Shown here: piece after piece, positions 55,812 to 61,773 of the stretch
How the letters are laid out: every line of letters begins with the position of its first letter
How positions within the stretch are numbered: the stretch's first letter is position 1
Source: Candidatus Omnitrophota bacterium
GTDB lineage: Bacteria; Omnitrophota; Gorgyraeia; Duberdicusellales; 4484-171
DNA length: 64,000 bases
Assembly (NCBI GenBank): GCA_041652815.1
Contig: JBAZGN010000004.1
Location: forward strand, 143,890 to 207,889
Direction: 5' to 3'
Made by a program: the position numbers and the translations under genes
The notes under the pieces: model-generated
The model's database searches: none
What the model saw: the letters and a program-made list of their open reading frames with translations, nothing else
Told to the model about the DNA's origin: nothing

Positions 55812-56948
55812 ATGATATTTTTTCGAATGTCTACTTCTGTCAAACGCGCAAATATCGAAAACGCTGTTAATTTTATAAAATCTGCGGCAGTAAGCCCCGT
55901 TAGAGAATTGCGTTATCTGAGGATTTATCGCGCTGACTCCGCTAGAAAAATATTCTCTAACGGGGTAAAGCAAAATTTTTTCTTGCCGCTTGTAATCTTT
56001 TTTATCTCCTGCCTTGGCGCTCTAAATCTCTTTGCCGCGAGCGAACAATCTATTAAAAAGCTTTATGGCGATTATCTCAAAGGTTTGTTCTATGCTGAGG
56101 AAGGTAGTTTTGAGCAAGCGTTGACGGAACTTAATAAAGTAAAAAAAGTTGACCCTAATTCCATATATGTAAGATTAAAAATAGCAAGCGTTTTAATACG
56201 GATGGGCGCCCTTGAAAAAGCGGAAGCCGAACTTAAAGAAGCAAAGGCGCTTAATCCGGAAAGTTTTGATGCTTCTCTTGGCCTAATTTTTCTCTATTCT
56301 TACGGCCAGAAAGATGTAGAGCTTGAAGGTGAATATGAGGAGTTTTTAAAAAAAGCTCATAAATTGAAGCCGGGAGATGTGAAAATCTCCGAATATCTTG
56401 CGCAGTTTTATTTTTATAAAAAACAGCCGCAGGAAGCATTAGCGATTTACGAAAATATCGTAAAACAGCAGCCCGAGTATGTTGATGCGCTTTTTTGGCT
56501 TGGTTTTTTATATGAAGACCTTAAACGGCGTGATGATGCGATAAAAACCTGGAAAAAGGCTTTGCAAATTTCGCCTAACCATTCCCAGACCTTGAATTCT
56601 CTCGGTTATTTATACGCCGAAGAAGGTAAAAACCTCGATGAAGCTGAAAGCATGCTTAAAAAGGCTTTAGAGGCAGAGCCTGATAACGGTGCATATCTTG
56701 ATAGCATTGGCTGGATTTATTTTAAAAAGAAAGATTACAAAAAAGCGCAGGACTACCTGAAGAAAGCTATAAAATACCAGGAAGACCCGGTTATTTATGA
56801 ACATATGGGCGATCTCTACATAGCTTTGAGTAAAAAAGAAGATGCGCTTGATTTTTACAAGAAAGGCCTGGAGCGTTTCCCCGATAATAAAGAACTAAAA
56901 AATAAAGTAGATAGATATGGAGCAGAAAATAAAGTACCTAAAAAATAA
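55812..56948 (+). CDS. tetratricopeptide-repeat protein with N-terminal membrane anchor
   Basis: TM segment FFLPLVIFFISCLGALNLF, then at least 7 TPR-like 34-mers (e.g. AEAELKEAKALNPESFDASLGLIFLY; ALFWLGFLYEDLKRRDDAIKTWKKALQISP). Confidence 0.7.
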   Translation: MIFFRMSTSVKRANIENAVNFIKSAAVSPVRELRYLRIYRADSARKIFSNGVKQNFFLPLVIFFISCLGALNLFAASEQSIKKLYGDYLKGLFYAEEGSFEQALTELNKVKKVDPNSIYVRLKIASVLIRMGALEKAEAELKEAKALNPESFDASLGLIFLYSYGQKDVELEGEYEEFLKKAHKLKPGDVKISEYLAQFYFYKKQPQEALAIYENIVKQQPEYVDALFWLGFLYEDLKRRDDAIKTWKKALQISPNHSQTLNSLGYLYAEEGKNLDEAESMLKKALEAEPDNGAYLDSIGWIYFKKKDYKKAQDYLKKAIKYQEDPVIYEHMGDLYIALSKKEDALDFYKKGLERFPDNKELKNKVDRYGAENKVPKK

Positions 56949-57768
56949 GGCTAACGAAATAAGAAAGCTTATCATCGAGATGCTTGCCAAAGCAGGAAGC
57001 GGCCATCCGGGCGGCTCTCTTTCGTCGTCAGATATAATCGCCTGTCTTTACTTTGAAGTTATGCGTCATGACCCTAAAAATCCCGCATGGCCGGATAGAG
57101 ACAGGTTTCATTTGTCCAAAGGGCATTGCGCCCCCGCGCTTTACGCAACTCTCGCGTTAAGCGGTTATTTTCCACGGGAGGCTTTATGGACTTTACGTAA
57201 GCTTAATTCCATACTTCAGGGCCATCCCGACAAACGTGTTCCCGGGGTAGAAGTTGCCAGCGGCTCGTTGGGGCAGGGTTTATCCATTGCTTTGGGAATG
57301 GCGCTTTCTGCCAAAGTAGATAAAAAAGATTACCGCGTGTATTGTCTTATGGGTGATGGTGAAATACAGGAAGGCAATATCTGGGAAGCAGCTATGGCTG
57401 CGGCACATTTTAAAGCAGATAATTTGTGCGGTATAGTTGACTATAATCATTTTCAGATTGACGGTAGAACTGATGATATCATGAACCTGGAGCCTCTTTT
57501 GAATAAATGGGAAGCTTTCGGCTGGCATGCCCTGTCCTGCGATGGACATAATCTTAAAGAACTGCTCGAGGCTTTTAGGATTGCAAAGACGGTTAAATTA
57601 AAACCAACAGTTATAATTGCTCACACAGTAAAAGGCAAGGGTGTTTCTTTTATGGAACACGTGGTTGATTTCCACGGAAGAGCGCCTACGGAAAAAGAAA
57701 GGGAAATCGCCCTTCGTGAACTTAGTGAAATCGAAAAAGCTGAAGAAGGCATAGAGGAAGAGGAATAA
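56917..57768 (+). CDS. transketolase, N-terminal (TPP-binding) subunit of a split enzyme
   Basis: SGHPGGSLSSSDI...HCAP...GSLGQGLSIALGMA...GDGEIQEGNIWEA motifs. 283 aa. The stop overlaps the start of the C-terminal subunit gene. Confidence 0.9.
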   Translation: MEQKIKYLKNKANEIRKLIIEMLAKAGSGHPGGSLSSSDIIACLYFEVMRHDPKNPAWPDRDRFHLSKGHCAPALYATLALSGYFPREALWTLRKLNSILQGHPDKRVPGVEVASGSLGQGLSIALGMALSAKVDKKDYRVYCLMGDGEIQEGNIWEAAMAAAHFKADNLCGIVDYNHFQIDGRTDDIMNLEPLLNKWEAFGWHALSCDGHNLKELLEAFRIAKTVKLKPTVIIAHTVKGKGVSFMEHVVDFHGRAPTEKEREIALRELSEIEKAEEGIEEEE

Positions 57769-58703
57769 TGGCCATAGAACAATTATACCAACGCGATGTT
57801 TACGGTAAAACTCTTGTTGAGCTTGGCAAAAAAGACGCAAGGGTTATTGTGTGTGATGCGGATTTATCCGGCTCAACGAGAACGATTTTGTTTGCGAAAG
57901 AGTTTCCCGACAGATTTTTTAATTTTGGTGTAGCCGAGCAGAATCTGATGGCGACTGCGGCAGGAATTGCCAGTTGCGGCAAGATAGTATTTGCCTCAAC
58001 TTTTGCGATGTTTGCCAGCGCGAGAGCGCTAGATCAGGTCAGAAACAGCATATGTTATAATAATTTAAACGTCAAAATCGTAGCAACTCATAGCGGAATA
58101 ACTGTTGGCGAAGACGGCGCATCTCATCAGGCCTTGGAAGATATAAATTTTATGCGCGCGATACCTAATATGAAAATAATAGTTCCTGCTGACGGCCCTG
58201 AAACTCGCGCAGCTATACTTGCTGCCTTCGAAACTAACGGCCCGTTTTACGTTAGATTAGGAAGGTCAAAGGTGGCTTCTATCGAAAGTAAAAAAGATTT
58301 TGTTCTGGGGAAGGGCTATATGTGCCGGGAAGGAAAGGGCATAGCATTAATTGCGTGTGGTGTTATGGTCAATGAAGCTTTGGCCGCCGCCGCTGCACTT
58401 ACGGATAAAAAAATAGATGCTGCAGTATTTAATATTCACACCATAAAACCATTAGATAAATCCTTGATCGTTGATATCGCTAAAAAATACGGCAAAATTA
58501 TTGTTTGCGAGGAACATCAGGTAACCGGCGGATTATATTCAGCAGTATGTGAAACATTGTCTCATGACTGCCCTGTTTTGGTTGAACATATAGGTGTTGA
58601 AGACAGGTTCGGCCAATCGGGTTCACCAAAAGAGCTTATGGAATGCTATGGACTCTCGGCTAATTGTATCGCGAAAAAATGCGAAGAATTTTTACGGAAG
58701 TAA
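57768..58703 (+). CDS. transketolase, C-terminal (pyrimidine-binding / C-terminal domain) subunit
   Basis: FGVAEQNLMATAAGIA...THSGITVGEDGASHQALEDI...IVPADGPE. 311 aa. Confidence 0.9.
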   Translation: MAIEQLYQRDVYGKTLVELGKKDARVIVCDADLSGSTRTILFAKEFPDRFFNFGVAEQNLMATAAGIASCGKIVFASTFAMFASARALDQVRNSICYNNLNVKIVATHSGITVGEDGASHQALEDINFMRAIPNMKIIVPADGPETRAAILAAFETNGPFYVRLGRSKVASIESKKDFVLGKGYMCREGKGIALIACGVMVNEALAAAAALTDKKIDAAVFNIHTIKPLDKSLIVDIAKKYGKIIVCEEHQVTGGLYSAVCETLSHDCPVLVEHIGVEDRFGQSGSPKELMECYGLSANCIAKKCEEFLRK

Positions 58704-59928: not shown

Positions 59929-60342
59929 ATGGAGATTACAGAAGTCAGGATTTCACTCAGGGAAAATGAAGGCAAGCGTCTTAAGGCATACGCAACAGTT
60001 ACATTCGATAACTCTTTTGTTGTAAAGAATATTAAGGTTGTAGAAGGTAATAGTGGCTTGTTTGTGGCTATGCCGGCCAGAAAAGCAAAGCAATTTTGCC
60101 CGCGTTGCGGAAAAAAAGTAGACATGGGAAGCCACTATTGCAATCATTGCGGCGTGCAATTACCTCCGCCCCCTAAAGACTTGGGAACAAATAGGCAAAC
60201 AACGCACCAGGACCTCGCGCATCCTATAAATCAGGAGTTTCGCGATTATCTTCAAAGTAAGGTTTTGGACGCTTATCAAAGCGAAAAAACATTAGGGCCA
60301 AGAGAGGAGATTAAAGAAGAAAGTCCGGAAATGCAAAGTTAG
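59929..60342 (+). CDS. spoVG: SpoVG-family protein carrying an internal CxxC...CxxC zinc-ribbon insertion
   Basis: MEITEVRISLRENEGKRLKAYATVTFDNSFVVKNIKVVEGNSGLFVAMPARK is colinear with SpoVG. After ...AMPARKAKQ comes the insertion FCPRCGKKVDMGSHYCNHCGVQLPPPP, then the usual DLAHPIN...LDAY. RBS AAGGAGG at 59914-59920. The track ORF starts earlier at 59824, but the RBS supports 59929. Confidence 0.8.
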   Translation: MEITEVRISLRENEGKRLKAYATVTFDNSFVVKNIKVVEGNSGLFVAMPARKAKQFCPRCGKKVDMGSHYCNHCGVQLPPPPKDLGTNRQTTHQDLAHPINQEFRDYLQSKVLDAYQSEKTLGPREEIKEESPEMQS

Positions 60343-60431
60343 AGAAAGGTTAAGGCTAAGGTCAAGGCTAATTAAAAAACGGATTTATTATATTCTCGAC
60401 CTTAACCTCAGCCTTTTTTGTTTTTATAGAT

Positions 60432-60590
60432 TGCCCGGTAGTGTCCCTGAACCAGAGTCGCCTTCGGCAACACGGTTCAGGGTTAAAAAATTGGTAACAC
60501 AGCAGAATTTGCCGTGAATCAGAGCAAAGCACGGTTCACGGCAACCCTATACCGTGCGAGCAAAGCGAGCTCTGGTATAGGGTTGGGTCA
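60432..60590 (+). other. partial tRNA-Gln copy (acceptor/D-arm/anticodon-stem 5' part) interrupted by two small hairpin insertions
   Basis: TGCCCGGTAGTGT + [CCCTGAACCAGAG...GGTTCAGGG hairpin] + AATTGGTAACACAGCAGAATTTG + [~70 nt double-hairpin element CCGTGAATCAGAG...GGTATAGGG] + TTGGGTC, then unrelated sequence. Confidence 0.6.
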
Positions 60591-60594
60591 AAAC

Positions 60595-60867
60595 ATGCAC
60601 TGTGTTTATATCTTATATAGTAAAAAGATTAAGCGATTCTATATTGGCTATACTGAAAATTTGCCAAGAAGGATAGCCGAACATGAACGAGGAAGCACTT
60701 GGACAACGGCTAGGTTGCCAGGATTCGAATTGATATTTTGTGAATATTTTGTTTCTCGTCTAGATGCTGTAAGGCGAGAAAAATATTTCAAGACTACAAA
60801 AGGAAAAAGATCATTGAAGCTAATTTTGAGAGATTCACTCAACGACAACGATTGCCCGGTAGTGTAA
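60595..60867 (+). CDS. GIY-YIG nuclease-superfamily protein (short YhbQ/UPF0213-like type)
   Basis: VYILYSKKIKRFYIGYTENLPRRIAEHERG is the GIY-(10)-YIG...R...E signature. Likely start at 60595 (MHCVY). The track ORF from 60514 reads through the hairpin element upstream. The 3' end overlaps the tRNA start. Confidence 0.7.
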   Translation: MHCVYILYSKKIKRFYIGYTENLPRRIAEHERGSTWTTARLPGFELIFCEYFVSRLDAVRREKYFKTTKGKRSLKLILRDSLNDNDCPVV

Positions 60868-60924
60868 TTGGTAACACAGCAGAATTTGGGTCTGTTTTTT
60901 GTGGTTCGAGTCCACACCGGGCAG
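60854..60924 (+). tRNA. tRNA-Gln (anticodon UUG), intact
   Basis: Folded by hand. Acceptor TGCCCGG/CCGGGCA with U1:A72 and G73 (Gln identity). U8. D-stem GTGT/ACAC with GG in the loop. Anticodon stem GCAGA/TCTGT. Loop ATTTGGG (U33, anticodon TTG). T-arm TGTGG-TTCGAGT-CCACA. No encoded CCA. Confidence 0.7.
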
Positions 60925-60942
60925 ATAGATTACTTAGTAGTA

Positions 60943-61065
60943 CAGCAGAATTTGCCGTGAACCAGAGCAAAGCACGGTTCACGGCAACCCTATACTGTGC
61001 GAGCAAAGCGAGCTCTGGTATAGGGTTGGGTCTGTTTTTTGTGGTTCGAGTCCACACCGGGCAGT
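60943..61065 (+). other. partial tRNA-Gln copy (anticodon stem to 3' end) carrying the same ~70 nt double-hairpin insertion in the anticodon loop
   Basis: CAGCAGAATTTG + CCGTGAACCAGAGCAAAGCACGGTTCACGGCAACCCTATACTGTGCGAGCAAAGCGAGCTCTGGTATAGG + GTTGGGTCTGTTTTTTGTGGTTCGAGTCCACACCGGGCAG. The 3' 41 nt are identical to the intact tRNA. Confidence 0.6.
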
Positions 61066-61209
61066 ACTTCGACTCGTTCGCCCTTCGTTTACGAAGGGCT
61101 CACTCGCTCAGTACAAGTTTTTAATATTAAACCTCGGGGTGAACGAGGAGAAGTATCCTGAGCGAACGACGAGCGATCCATAATAAGCGTAACCTAATTA
61201 AAGCGAGGA

Positions 61210-61488
61210 GTGAGTCGAAGGATAATGTGGTATGTGTATATTCTCAGTTGCGAGAACGGAGATTTGTACACTGGCATTACAAATAATCTTAAGCGTCGAT
61301 TCGAAGAGCATGCATCGGGCAAAGGTGGTCATTTCACGAAATCGTTTATAGCGAAAGATATTTTATTTTCCGAAGAGCATCCCGATAAGTCGTCAGCGTT
61401 AAGACGCGAAGCTCAAATTAAAGGTTGGACGAGGAAAAAGAAATTAGCGTTGGCCAAAAAAGATTTAGAGCTTTTGAATAAACTATAG
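61210..61488 (+). CDS. GIY-YIG nuclease-superfamily protein (YhbQ/UPF0213-like), second copy
   Basis: WYVYILSCENGDLYTGITNNLKRRFEEHASGKGGHFTK...LRREAQIKGW is colinear with E. coli YhbQ. The start is either the GTG at 61210 or the ATG at 61225. Confidence 0.75.
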   Translation: MSRRIMWYVYILSCENGDLYTGITNNLKRRFEEHASGKGGHFTKSFIAKDILFSEEHPDKSSALRREAQIKGWTRKKKLALAKKDLELLNKL

Positions 61489-61773
61489 CTAATGTTATAA
61501 GTATGATACTTTACGAAGAAATATTGCGGGAGTTTCAAAAAAATAAAGCATCTGGCCGCGATAAAGATTTGGAAGATATTAAATATCTAAAATTGGTTAA
61601 AAAATCAAAATGAAGTTTGGCTGGAAAACTCAAAAAGAAAAAATTTCTCGAGGTGCAAAAATGTCTGCTGCGAAAAAACTTGAAGGCATCAGGTTGATGA
61701 ATGAATTAGCAGATAGAGTATTATCTATCCGGCAAAAACTTTTAAGGCGCAAATTAAGAGAAGGTAATTAATC

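Follow-up and report, generated by a model that had tools for sequence, protein, structure and literature searches.

Two probable mobile cassettes with structured modules and minimal Slx1-like GIY-YIG genes in a tRNA-Gln gene of an Omnitrophota bacterium

Certain integrative elements insert into tRNA genes and make good the loss with their own copy of the sequence that they displace. Their integrases are of the tyrosine or serine type, their length is in the kilobase range, and it is usually the 3' part of the tRNA that is duplicated. Group I introns interrupt the anticodon loops of bacterial tRNA genes, with tRNA-Leu(UAA) as a known host, and some carry homing endonuclease genes. IS200/IS605 ends, REP/RAYT and integron attC sites have imperfect palindromes, with conserved extrahelical bases, close to or at the ends of the element; HUH (Y1) transposases or tyrosine recombinases act on them. 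The target or cleavage site of IS200/IS605 pairs with a short sequence adjacent to the hairpin. We know of no GIY-YIG enzyme with a role in hairpin-end transposition or recombination.

Among GIY-YIG proteins, eukaryotic Slx1 cuts branched and stem-loop DNA, and SegB of phage T4 belongs to the I-TevI-like fold class of larger, multi-domain proteins. SegB is a free-standing homing endonuclease encoded in a tRNA gene cluster; the site that it recognises takes in the T-psi-C stem-loop motif, which is conserved in tRNA genes, and cleavage of recipients that lack its gene allows this gene to spread along with the tRNA genes next to it (PMC2330249). A 2006 survey of the superfamily described the prokaryotic Slx1-like family as minimal, mostly vertically inherited and either of unknown function or involved in repair, and mentioned neither linkage to tRNA genes nor mobility (PMC1564403). 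Linkage of minimal GIY-YIG genes to tRNA genes, and the hairpin module reported here, were undescribed in the freely accessible full texts that we searched.

We analyzed a stretch of 64,000 nucleotides (the window) from a Candidatus Omnitrophota bacterium. We consider it likely (probability about 0.7) that the approximately 1.4 kb between spoVG and glmU is a tRNA-Gln gene that has been colonised by two mobile cassettes, each consisting of a structured non-coding module and a minimal Slx1-like GIY-YIG gene. Cassette 1 (about 60512-61028) would occupy the anticodon loop, after TTG. It would consist of a double hairpin followed by the GIY-YIG gene G1, a whole tRNA-Gln(UUG) as replacement, a short spacer and the double hairpin again. 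What is left of the resident tRNA would be the two outer halves, 60432-60511 (later entered by the hairpin h0) and 61029-61064. Directly 3' of the resident tRNA would lie cassette 2 (61065-61488 and perhaps beyond), which is of the type of the second gene, G2. The features, all on the + strand, are as follows.

60432-60444, + strand: positions 1-13 of the resident tRNA-Gln (5' strands of the acceptor and D stems), in a 16-nt exact repeat shared with the start of the intact tRNA; the native flank ATAGAT lies directly upstream.
60445-60488, + strand: h0, a solo hairpin of hp1 type (CCCTGAACC-A-...-GGTTCAGGG, 60445-60482) plus TTAAAA, in the D loop of the 5' piece, recognised by its inverted repeat and motif repeats.
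60489-60511, + strand: positions 14-36 of the resident tRNA-Gln with the anticodon TTG at the end, a 23-nt exact repeat shared with the intact tRNA.
60512-60585, + strand: I_L, the left double-hairpin module (hp1 60512-60541, CAA 60542-60544, hp2 60545-60582, second TTG 60583-60585), from inverted repeats and nhmmer (E=1.3e-8); included in alignment A3, whose structure is supported by covariation.
60586-60589, + strand: GGTC, tRNA positions 37-40 and the last tRNA homology in the 5' piece, at the end of the 99-nt repeat.
60595-60867, + strand: G1, a gene for a 90-aa Slx1-like minimal GIY-YIG protein, a predicted nuclease (Pfam PF01541, 3e-14; UPF0213/Slx1 PDB matches).
60853-60924, + strand: intact tRNA-Gln(UUG), read as the putative cassette-borne (cargo) copy (ARAGORN; Rfam tRNA 55.6 bits against a gathering score of 29).
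60925-60931, + strand: spacer ATAGATT, read from the sequence; it repeats 60426-60432, which comprises the first base of the 5' piece and the 6 nt before it.
60932-60954, + strand: b' (ACTTAGTAGTACAGCAGAATTTG), which matches tRNA positions 14-36 at 83% identity and comprises a degenerate D arm, the anticodon stem and the anticodon.
60955-61028, + strand: I_R, the right double-hairpin module (hp1 60955-60984, CAA 60985-60987, hp2 60988-61025, TTG 61026-61028), from inverted repeats and nhmmer (E=1.1e-8).
61029-61064, + strand: 3' part of the resident tRNA-Gln, positions 37-73, abutting the G2 leader, within a 39-nt repeat (61026-61064) identical to the intact tRNA.
61065-61224, + strand: leader of the second (G2) cassette, with conserved blocks in more than 20 loci and an RNAalifold structure.
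61225-61488, + strand: G2, a gene for an 87-aa Slx1-like minimal GIY-YIG protein of a second subfamily, a predicted nuclease (Pfam 4.5e-20; UPF0213 5e-20).

The intact tRNA-Gln(UUG) was the sole tRNA called by ARAGORN in the window (60852-60925). It was flanked by a 5' tRNA piece (60432-60589) and a 3' tRNA piece (60932-61064), and one 74-nt double hairpin was common to both, 3' of the anticodon. The earlier note on this DNA had described such an arrangement at essentially these coordinates, and the tRNA that it placed at 60854-60924 was confirmed by ARAGORN and Rfam. Other details of that description were also borne out: the 5' piece contained both the D-stem hairpin insert and the anticodon-loop double hairpin with its repeated TTG; G1 overlapped the start of the intact tRNA by its last four codons and its stop codon, which lies within the D loop; the repeats and the Pfam matches recovered the 3' fragment with the same insertion and the second GIY-YIG gene; and the ORFs starting at 60514 and 60852 were mechanical read-throughs of the hairpins.

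The direct repeats at the locus were 99 nt (95% identity) and 39 nt (100% identity) in length. I_L and I_R differed at two positions, both C/T and each leaving a G.T pair, and the intact tRNA and the resident halves were identical at all comparable positions. The ATAGATT repeat of the upstream flank also fits an origin of the right-hand hairpin copy by tandem duplication or aberrant repair. The h0 insert (44 nt, a 38-nt hairpin plus TTAAAA) was not present at the corresponding site in the related loci L004 and L007, and is thus a recent gain. The source MAG and L002, an ENA assembly made independently from a different sample, had exactly this locus sequence. Between spoVG and glmU, only the GIY-YIG ORFs matched known families, and no recombinase, integrase or HUH (Y1) transposase was found. 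On the + strand, no terminator was found within 60420-61500, and no promoter was found at the locus by a scan for the sigma-70 consensus, which is uninformative for this phylum. Both GIY-YIG genes are probably read from the tRNA promoter.

Both proteins scored well above the Pfam PF01541 cut-off of 22.6 bits (G1, 53.5 bits; G2, 72.2 bits) and were 36% identical to each other in a pairwise comparison. The GIY-YIG domain spanned residues 1-73 of these 87-90 aa proteins. Y5, Y16-I17-G18, R26, H30 and E62 were invariant in 24 members of the G1 family, including the window protein, and G2 had the equivalent invariant residues of its own family alignment. The AlphaFold2 model of G1 (mean pLDDT 82.9) consisted of a single domain. 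Its best Foldseek matches were 1zg2, Slx1 (6seh, 7cq3 and 4xm5) and 1ywl, with UvrC and I-TevI at E>0.3; a profile search ranked the families as Foldseek did, UPF0213 and Slx1 first. G1 and G2 share their fold and size with the prokaryotic Slx1-like minimal proteins (UPF0213; BH0048, 1zg2; EF2693, 1ywl; the YhbQ group), which were also their best sequence and structure matches, in keeping with the YhbQ-type label given to them earlier. These comparisons and the model suggest that G1 and G2 are minimal GIY-YIG nucleases of the Slx1-like/UPF0213 branch. The NCBIfam model for group I intron endonucleases gave only 17-20 bits (cut-off 56), and PADLOC detected no defence system, its partial, sub-significant matches being to the GIY-YIG motif only.

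Like segB, G1 and G2 are GIY-YIG genes among tRNA genes. Unlike the phage protein, their products are of 87-90 aa and Slx1-like, the genes themselves are chromosomal, and viral contigs have almost no members of the G1 family; a search of 2.9 million such contigs gave only two weak matches, and thus the cassettes are not phage-borne. Further, I-TevI and the Seg proteins have a separate DNA-binding domain and a long recognition site, whereas no separate domain for site specificity was present in G1 or G2, judging from the extent of the Pfam match and the AlphaFold2 model. SegB is not accompanied by a hairpin module and splits no tRNA gene, in contrast to cassette 1, which has the module and, on our reading, splits the gene.

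The hairpins are a conserved cis module of the GIY-YIG cassette and not random damage. An nhmmer profile built from curated seeds matched the + strand of the window only at I_L and I_R, and hairpin motifs in the 64 kb were confined to the locus (three matches versus 0.27 expected). Of 80 G1-family loci, at least 50 had the module; it was on the + strand and ended 1-260 nt upstream of the ATG. In the module structure, 96.1% of cells were paired compared with 74% in shuffles, compensatory changes occurred in 22 of 25 pairs, and sliding the pair partner by 1-3 columns left only 32-37% paired. A bulged A and a bulged T were invariant in all 37 modules. The module also showed dyad symmetry: hp1 was closer to the reverse complement of hp2 than to hp2 itself in 34 of 37. 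G.T wobbles numbered 16 and A.C mismatches 8, which are small counts on which to weigh DNA-level against RNA-level folding. In searches of the window locus and 29 related loci, Rfam matched only the tRNA; the module, the G2 leader and the ORF-less inserts were unmatched.

The spacer between the two hairpins was the reverse complement of the flanking target nucleotides, a rule obeyed by eight different sequences (TTG/CAA, CTG/CAG, TAA/TTA, TA/TA, CA/TG, CG/CG, GAC/GTC and CCA/TGG), and the bases of two independent hairpins paired with flanking triplets. Across phyla and tRNA types, modules lay at the junction of tRNA and cassette; they also occurred after the tRNA 3' end and in the D and T loops of dead fragments. 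Past the module, the tRNA sequence continued for 4-8 nt, as GGTC does in the window, in L008, L012, L053, L057, L076 and L080. Solo hairpins were seen inside tRNA remnants (h0, L039 and L046); dispersed palindromic repeats of the MITE, REP or RPE type, by comparison, have many copies spread over a genome independently of any single gene family. Covariation-supported bulged hairpins at the boundary of the element, a trait of IS200/IS605-type ends, are present here, and the complementarity of the spacer to the flanking target nucleotides is likewise similar to IS200/IS605. The cassette differs from IS200/IS605, REP/RAYT and attC in that its two hairpins are inverted relative to each other and in its target, a tRNA gene.

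Both genes have relatives next to tRNA genes in many bacterial phyla. The G1-like family comprised approximately 3,800 clusters (50% identity; E<=1e-10), and its members were found in Omnitrophota, Patescibacteria, Bacteroidota, Planctomycetota and other phyla. Cultured Flavobacteriaceae with the cassette were Muriicola jejuensis KCTC 22299, Aureisphaera galaxeae NBRC 110018 and Lentiprolixibacter aurantiacus M415. A tRNA gene lay on the same strand within 400 nt in 61 of 80 loci of the G1 family and on the opposite strand in two, and the far flanks contained just 12 tRNAs in 296 kb. The neighbouring tRNAs were of the Gln, Leu, Tyr, Asn, Met, Glu and Arg types. Exact copies of tRNA positions 1-36 preceded the gene in L007, L008, L012, L053, L057, L071 and L080, fragments of the tRNA 3' end followed it in L010, L017, L042, L056 and L058, and older tandem tRNA fragments were present in L008, L021 and L082. 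Protein clades followed the target tRNA, 109 of 130 pairs with at least 70% identity sharing the target. Several copies were present in single MAGs (L041 and L042; L068 and L073). The window, L004 and L007 had G1, whereas the spoVG-tRNA-Gln-G2 loci L089, L092 and L108 lacked it, as did L107, with the same tRNA-Gln-G2-glmU layout. Presence and absence at the same site in relatives, as in free-standing homing endonuclease genes, thus applies to G1 and also to G2. Unlike the family as surveyed in 2006, the two subfamilies here are tied to tRNA genes and structured modules.

G2 is not part of the element that contains G1: it represents another type of cassette, which has a structured leader of its own and is located at the 3' end of tRNA-Gln. 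In more than 20 loci, the blocks of the leader, of about 160 nt, followed the tRNA 3' end and preceded the ATG, in the order TACTTCGACTCG, a variable hairpin, CTCGCTCAGTACAAG, CGAGGAGAAGTATCCTGAGCGA and GAGTCGAAGGA, the last of which overlaps the Shine-Dalgarno sequence. RNAalifold predicted the helices P1 (TTCGACTC/GAGTCGAA), P2, which covaries, and P3 (TCGCTCA/TGAGCGA). Among the 30 closest relatives of G2, 20 had a same-strand tRNA within 400 nt, tRNA-Gln in 17 cases, and those near a tRNA were mostly 57-160 nt downstream of tRNA-Gln. The same-strand link was found in only 5 of 50 distant relatives (less than 50% identity to G2). G2 was absent from the corresponding tRNA 3' end of the close relative L007.

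A two-ended form with hairpins on both sides was found in three phyla, in the window, L026 and L039, and a second hairpin copy was present in only 3 of 20 anticodon-side loci. In L026, the two outer hairpin-bearing pieces join to form a perfectly folding tRNA-Leu, which differs from the inner intact tRNA-Leu by compensatory changes in the anticodon stem and the T stem. Thus, the cassette of L026 split the resident tRNA and brought its own. By analogy, the intact tRNA-Gln(UUG) of the window would be the cargo of its cassette.

The two-cassette reading is supported by the architecture, the conservation and covariation of the module, the same-strand linkage, the target-derived nucleotides, the cargo tRNA of L026 and the pattern of presence and absence. 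The mode of movement can be proposed only conditionally. The nuclease, probably a symmetric dimer, may recognise folded or cruciform hairpins or the loops of tRNA genes, and its break would start the copying. A copy would then be installed through recombination-dependent repair with the conserved tRNA sequence as homology, which may keep each clade to one tRNA type. The cargo and resident tRNAs have identical 3' parts, and recombination between these may convert the two-ended form into the commoner form with one hairpin. Since the regenerated intact tRNA should stay a target, immunity is unexplained in this model.

An unlikely alternative, which concerns the right-hand hairpin, is that the nuclease cut a second or regenerated tRNA and that repair copied the module from the 5' piece by gene conversion or tandem duplication, leaving an immune, dead tRNA copy. 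The occurrence of ATAGATT at both 60426-60432 and 60925-60931 is consistent with such a by-product, as are the similarity of the spacer of L039 to the 3' end of the GIY ORF, the 97-100% identity of the upstream and downstream modules in all three two-ended cases and the older tandem fragments mentioned above. However, both in the anticodon stem and in the T stem, the 3' piece of L026 agrees with the outer 5' piece rather than with the inner tRNA, so that a resident tRNA split by insertion is the simpler account.

The earlier note had proposed an element integrated into an already disrupted tRNA gene, with the shared sequence as attL/attR. In the classical form of this model, a small tRNA-bearing circle would have recombined through an att site into a tRNA gene carrying the hairpin. 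The 99-nt direct repeats do bracket G1 and the intact tRNA, the outer halves of L026 form one tRNA around a foreign inner one, and the junction of the tRNA end with ATAGATT fits a circle or a tandem form. However, no integrase or recombinase gene was present in or near the 1.4 kb, which speaks against the classical attL/attR model. The 99-nt repeats consist mainly of the hairpin module and were missing in 17 of 20 comparable loci, most loci having a single module without an attR-like copy. Further, the landing pad would have to be a non-functional tRNA, and the supposed prior disruption is the cassette's own module, conserved in at least 50 of the 80 loci. We therefore regard classical integration as improbable. 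What is supported of the proposal is that a mobile element disrupted tRNA-Gln and supplies a functional tRNA, for which L026 is a parallel; the prior disruption is not. Like integrative elements, the cassette would use a conserved tRNA gene as a landing site and bring a replacement; unlike them, it is about 0.5 kb long, has no recombinase, would insert into loops and has as its cargo either a complete tRNA or the 5' part of one.

It is very unlikely that the genes are immobile, with housekeeping GIY-YIG proteins of repair or RNA metabolism co-transcribed with tRNAs and hairpins acting as signals for RNA processing or attenuation. The strictly same-strand linkage, the terminator-free interval between tRNA and gene and the ability of the G2 leader to sequester its Shine-Dalgarno sequence agree with this view, and the 2006 survey held prokaryotic Slx1-like proteins to be vertically inherited (PMC1564403). 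In contrast, the genes are flanked by duplicated tRNA fragments, the inner tRNA of L026 is foreign, several tRNA types and loops are occupied, presence varies among close relatives, single MAGs hold multiple copies, and the module is dyad-symmetric with nearly all pairs Watson-Crick.

Scarcely credible is an intron-like role, in which a symmetric dimeric nuclease would cut the double hairpin from the pre-tRNA at the hairpin bases and a ligase would rejoin a functional tRNA. The insert does lie directly 3' of the anticodon with an exact anticodon triplet on each side, its pseudo-two-fold symmetry resembles that of splicing endonuclease substrates, and both I_L/I_R substitutions retain G.U pairing on the tRNA strand. 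However, all hairpin-bearing copies are truncated or lack an acceptor strand and have an intact copy adjacent, and the module also occurs past the 3' end and in the D and T loops of dead fragments. No bulge-helix-bulge motif was found, the supported structure having nowhere two 3-nt bulges with a 4-bp helix between them, and Rfam detected no group I intron core at E<=10 in the window locus or at E<=0.05 in the 29 related loci. GIY-YIG enzymes are, to our knowledge, DNA nucleases. The cassette resembles group I introns in interrupting the anticodon loop in association with an endonuclease gene, and differs from them in having no ribozyme core, an insert of only about 70-74 nt and a function kept by a second tRNA copy. 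Finally, simple decay of a tandem tRNA-Gln triplet or an assembly artefact, suggested by the three tRNA-Gln-derived segments in series, is contradicted by the identical locus in an independent assembly, by relatives that hold one tRNA-Gln, with or without cassettes, and never the three tandem intact copies that were sought, and by inserts that form a conserved, covarying module.

Tentatively, the two cassettes may represent a new class of prokaryotic transposable elements. Their sole enzyme would be an Slx1-like GIY-YIG structure-specific nuclease of about 90 aa acting on dyad-symmetric, bulged DNA hairpins at the element ends; a guide-like spacer of 0-3 nt would pair with the target, tRNA-gene loops and 3' ends would serve as targets, and the damage would be offset by the carried tRNA or part of it. 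If this is true, GIY-YIG would join the DDE, HUH, tyrosine, serine and Cas1 enzymes as a catalyst of transposition. The module is a conserved DNA or RNA structure and a candidate substrate of the nuclease, and tool builders would have an interest in a structure-guided nuclease of very small size whose short spacer pairs with the target, for which these proteins are candidates. The cassettes account for odd annotations such as tRNA fragments, 'pseudo-tRNAs', hairpin inserts and ORFs that enter tRNAs. Minimal Slx1-like GIY-YIG proteins (UPF0213/YhbQ) are abundant in bacteria and their function is not agreed; two subfamilies of them would be the coding part of compact, selfish tRNA-gene cassettes.

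The locus at 60-62 kb of the window consists of two nested, minimal GIY-YIG cassettes that target tRNA genes. The earlier note had described a scrambled tRNA-Gln locus, with an intact tRNA between partial copies interrupted by hairpins and with two GIY-YIG genes, and every item was borne out by ARAGORN, Rfam and motif searches of the 64 kb. ARAGORN and Rfam agreed on the intact tRNA-Gln as the sole tRNA at the locus, and the hairpin motifs were not found elsewhere in the 64-kb window; the observation was thus confirmed. The window exactly matched a MAG contig (GCA_023227945.1, JALOCC010000007.1), and its nearest relatives carry the label Candidatus Omnitrophota. An independent ENA assembly of a different sample (L002) carries the locus identical base for base; it is therefore not an assembly artefact.

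Features of the tRNA-Gln locus (window positions)
59929-60342: spoVG, upstream border of the locus
60345-60416: terminator-like inverted repeat after spoVG
60432-60444: tRNA-Gln positions 1-13
60445-60488: 44-nt insert, hairpin h0 (60445-60482) and TTAAAA
60489-60511: tRNA positions 14-36, anticodon TTG at the end
60512-60585: left double hairpin I_L (hp1, CAA, hp2, TTG)
60586-60589: GGTC, tRNA positions 37-40
60595-60867: G1, first GIY-YIG gene, 90 aa
60853-60924: intact tRNA-Gln(UUG), G1 stop codon inside
60925-60931: ATAGATT
60932-60954: degenerate D arm and anticodon stem
60955-61028: right double hairpin I_R, differing from I_L by 2 substitutions
61029-61064: remaining tRNA part, within a 39-nt repeat (61026-61064) that matches the intact copy at every base
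61065-61224: 160-nt leader of G2
61225-61488: G2, second GIY-YIG gene, 87 aa, 36% identity to G1
from 61774: glmU, downstream border of the locus

Several features of the surroundings were also recorded. SpoVG (59929-60342) has a zinc-ribbon insert (PF13240, residues 56-75) within the SpoVG domain and a C-terminal tail, a form also found in the related loci L004 and L007. The terminator-like hairpin at 60345-60416 consists of 12-nt tandem units, AAGGTTAAGGCT / AAGGTCAAGGCT, paired with CCTTAACCTCAGCCTTT, behind which lies a T run; owing to the long loop, the simple terminator scan did not pick it up. Transketolase (56917-58703) is encoded as two separate genes for the N-terminal and C-terminal halves; ispE follows directly and overlaps the second gene at its end.

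The same design was present in close relatives. In the sister species L004 (G1 homologue 79% identical) and in L007 (88% identical), the order was spoVG, tRNA positions 1-36, the same double hairpin, a few tRNA bases, G1 and intact tRNA-Gln; h0 was absent from both. A more distant Omnitrophota genome (L005/L008, 59% homologue) carried the design at a different locus, on tRNA-Gln(CUG), where the triplets flanking the hairpins were CTG, CAG and CTG, in contrast to TTG, CAA and TTG in the window.

When a profile of G1 relatives was run against one genome per species, 261 relatives were obtained, of which 80 loci were kept. Of the 80 loci, 61 had a same-strand tRNA no more than 400 nt away and 2 had an opposite-strand tRNA; the background density was 12 tRNAs in 296 kb of far flanks. 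Hosts include Omnitrophota, Patescibacteria, Bacteroidota (three cultured Flavobacteriaceae among them) and Planctomycetota, as well as MAGs labelled Gammaproteobacteria, Zixibacteria and Kiritimatiellia. The family comprised 3,839 clusters at 50% identity (E<=1e-10) and was practically absent from viral contigs. The cultured carriers, Aureisphaera galaxeae NBRC 110018, Muriicola jejuensis KCTC 22299 and Lentiprolixibacter aurantiacus M415 (loci L036, L043 and L060), are possible experimental hosts; at L036 and L043 the cassette adjoins tRNA-Asn. Roizmanbacteria CP066689 and Fulvivirga OZ245762 are further complete genomes that contain it.

Two layouts recurred among these loci. In layout (a), an intact tRNA (Tyr, Asn, Gln, Met, Glu or Arg) is followed by the double hairpin, which begins within or just past the discriminator/CCA, by a 13-170 nt spacer and by the gene, often with a tRNA 3'-end fragment of 12-31 nt downstream. 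In layout (b), a tRNA 5' part (mostly positions 1-36, at times to the D or T loop) comes first, then the double hairpin with another 4-8 tRNA bases behind it, and then the gene, whose ORF end is abutted or overlapped by an intact tRNA; the targets of this layout are tRNA-Gln, Leu, Glu and Met. The hairpins were all inserted in a cloverleaf loop, on the border of the anticodon stem or at the tRNA 3' end. Layout and tRNA type were shared by 109 of 130 protein pairs at least 70% identical versus 40 of 1011 pairs below 55%: protein clades track their target tRNA, with occasional switches among the 3'-end targets.

The nuclease ORFs of several lineages share a CPVV or CPGV C-terminus (window 60853-60867; proteins P0002, P0003, P0039, P0054 and P0085), as their final codons and stop codon are supplied by the first 15 nt of the tRNA-Gln gene. 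Trimming of the overlapping tRNA by RNase P would then deprive the mRNA of its stop codon. Separately, tRNA-Glu 5' fragments (positions 1-13 and 13-36) recur with a 241-nt period upstream of an intact tRNA-Glu in L082 (1668-2224), which suggests several insertion rounds at one tRNA.

The structure of the double hairpin is conserved. With an nhmmer profile derived from 13 curated modules it was detected in 50 of the 80 loci, on the + strand and with its end 1-260 nt before the start codon; five loci (L053, L057, L076, L080 and L034) have a short-loop variant that escapes the profile. In an alignment of 37 modules, standard pairs occupied 96.1% of cells (873 Watson-Crick, 16 G.T and 8 A.C pairs) versus 74% in shuffles, pairing was only 32-37% when the partner was slid by 1-3 columns, and both-sided changes occurred at 22 of 25 pairs. 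No Rfam family matched the double hairpin. Each hairpin has an outer stem of 9 bp and an inner stem of 3-7 bp, with an unpaired A after the 5' arm of hp1 and an unpaired T before the 3' arm of hp2, both invariant in 37/37 modules. Since hp1 was closer to the reverse complement of hp2 than to hp2 itself in 34 of 37 modules, the module is an inverted pair of one asymmetric hairpin, and either DNA strand can therefore adopt the same fold. Target nucleotides take part in the outermost pairs, and the two hairpins are separated by a spacer of 0-3 nt that is reverse-complementary to the nucleotides on either side of the module. This rule holds for eight different flank/spacer sequences (TTG/CAA, CTG/CAG, TAA/TTA, TA/TA, CA/TG, CG/CG, GAC/GTC and CCA/TGG). 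The module follows CTG in the anticodon stem in L014 and L020 and the anticodon CTG in L008, which suggests that the triplet matters in site choice.

A second module copy, 97-100% identical and lying downstream past an intact tRNA and before the tRNA remainder, was found at three loci in three phyla: the window, L026 (Patescibacteria, tRNA-Leu UAA) and L039 (Planctomycetia, tRNA-Gln CUG). When the stretch from the left to the right module of L026 was removed, the outer pieces joined into a perfectly folding tRNA-Leu(UAA). Further, the rejoined and inner tRNAs differed by compensatory changes in the anticodon stem (GGGGGA/TCCCCT versus GGGAGA/TCTCCT) and the T stem (GAGAG/CTCTC versus GCGGG/CCCGC). 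Thus, the outer pieces are one resident gene split by the insertion, and the inner tRNA arrived with it. The arrangement in L004 and L007, where the inner tRNA has a CCA end followed by its own terminator-like hairpin and the resident tRNA is reduced to its last 11-17 nt downstream, agrees with a split resident and an incoming tRNA. In the window, the inner tRNA equals the outer halves at all comparable positions and, by analogy with L026, may be regarded as cargo. The window locus is an unusually complete specimen in that both hairpin modules are present. I_R may be either an element end or a by-product of repair; the ATAGATT spacer, which duplicates the native upstream flank, fits the latter. 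If the cargo and resident tRNAs recombined through their identical 3' parts, the two-ended form could give rise to the commoner one-module form.

The earlier note's proposal that a mobile element carrying a replacement tRNA had disrupted the gene stands. Its view of the hairpins as prior damage to the tRNA does not, the double hairpin being conserved, and att-type integration was rejected, as no integrase or recombinase gene was found in or near the 1.4 kb.

ORF-less inserts of 100-200 nt were also noted, each with an intact tRNA on one side and, on the other, a residual tRNA fragment that starts at the T loop (L004 4331-4510, L007 2516-2715, also L096, L021, L029 and L042). The intact tRNA beside them has a CCA end and then its own terminator-like hairpin, and Rfam gave no match for the inserts, which look like another kind of tRNA-restoring insertion or a cassette remnant.

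Close homologues of G2 number in the hundreds, mainly on short contigs. A same-strand tRNA lay within 400 nt in 20 of the 30 closest metagenome relatives (17 of them tRNA-Gln), mostly 57-160 nt upstream of the gene, versus 5 of 50 more distant relatives, which served as an internal control. Three Omnitrophota loci (L089, L092 and L108) carry spoVG, a single tRNA-Gln(UUG) and G2 without G1, and L107 carries tRNA-Gln, G2 and glmU; in the close relative L007, G1 is present without G2, and 82 nt separate the tRNA 3' end from glmU. The two cassettes were thus gained and lost independently. The G2 leader, from the tRNA 3' end to ATG, conserves in order (T)ACTTCGACTCG, a variable covarying hairpin, CTCGCTCAGTACAAG, CGAGGAGAAGTATCCTGAGCGA and GAGTCGAAGGA. 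RNAalifold paired TTCGACTC with GAGTCGAA beside the Shine-Dalgarno sequence and TCGCTCA with TGAGCGA; an alternative partner of the 5' block, read from the sequences, is GAGAAGT. The predicted ACTTCGACTC/GAGTCGAAG pairing may hide the Shine-Dalgarno sequence. Given these pairings, including the alternative one, the leader may be a translational switch or, at the DNA level, a pair of terminal inverted repeats.

Between G2 and glmU (61489-61773) lie a 53-aa ORF (61610-61771), unmatched in Pfam, and a shorter upstream reading frame; this stretch may belong to the G2 cassette because all of it is missing in L007. Another locus with both cassette types stacked is L085 (2086-2500), where tRNA-Ser is followed in turn by a G2-type GIY-YIG ORF, a tRNA 3' fragment, a hairpin and a G1-type gene.

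Both G1 and G2 passed Pfam GIY-YIG and kept the invariant residues of their respective families. Profiles matched the NMR structures of two UPF0213 proteins, BH0048 and EF2693, with a weaker match to Slx1. For G1, AlphaFold2 gave a model with a mean pLDDT of 82.9 whose nearest structures were 1zg2 and Slx1 in complex with branched DNA; UvrC and I-TevI were not among them. Prokaryotic Slx1-like proteins were described in a 2006 survey as a minimal form of the domain; tRNA linkage and mobility go unmentioned there (PMC1564403).

We established the architecture of the cassettes, their conservation, tRNA-gene linkage, the cargo tRNA of a parallel locus and presence or absence between relatives; the mechanism that we propose would run as follows. 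A sigma-70 consensus scan, uninformative for this phylum, recognised no promoter of the cassette's own, and a simple scan found no + strand terminator between tRNA and cassette, so that expression is probably from the tRNA promoter. A dimer of the Slx1-like nuclease would recognise the two-fold symmetric hairpins (cruciform or single-stranded) or tRNA-gene loops and make the break, which would be repaired from a cassette-bearing copy with the near-universal tRNA sequence as homology. Such homology would keep each clade on one tRNA type and permit spread between species, and the replacement tRNA or tRNA part would render the insertion harmless. Older tandem fragments in L008, L021 and L082 suggest that the regenerated tRNA is sometimes re-cut.

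The closest functional parallel is T4 SegB, a GIY-YIG homing endonuclease that has the T-psi-C motif of tRNAs in its recognition site and takes tRNA genes with it as it spreads (PMC2330249); unlike the cassettes, SegB is a phage protein and lacks a hairpin module. Integrase-type tRNA-targeting islands likewise restore the tRNA but use another enzyme. Folded hairpins with extrahelical bases also occur in IS200/IS605, REP/RAYT and attC sites, and in IS200/IS605 guide-like pairing as well, but the enzymes there differ; group I introns likewise occupy the anticodon loop, but with a ribozyme that the cassettes lack. Full-text searches of literature available without subscription turned up no published description of tRNA-linked GIY-YIG cassettes. 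Homing-type nuclease genes and tRNA-restoring insertions are kinds already known, and the cassettes vary on both; there is a real chance that their mechanism represents a new class of hairpin-guided transposition.
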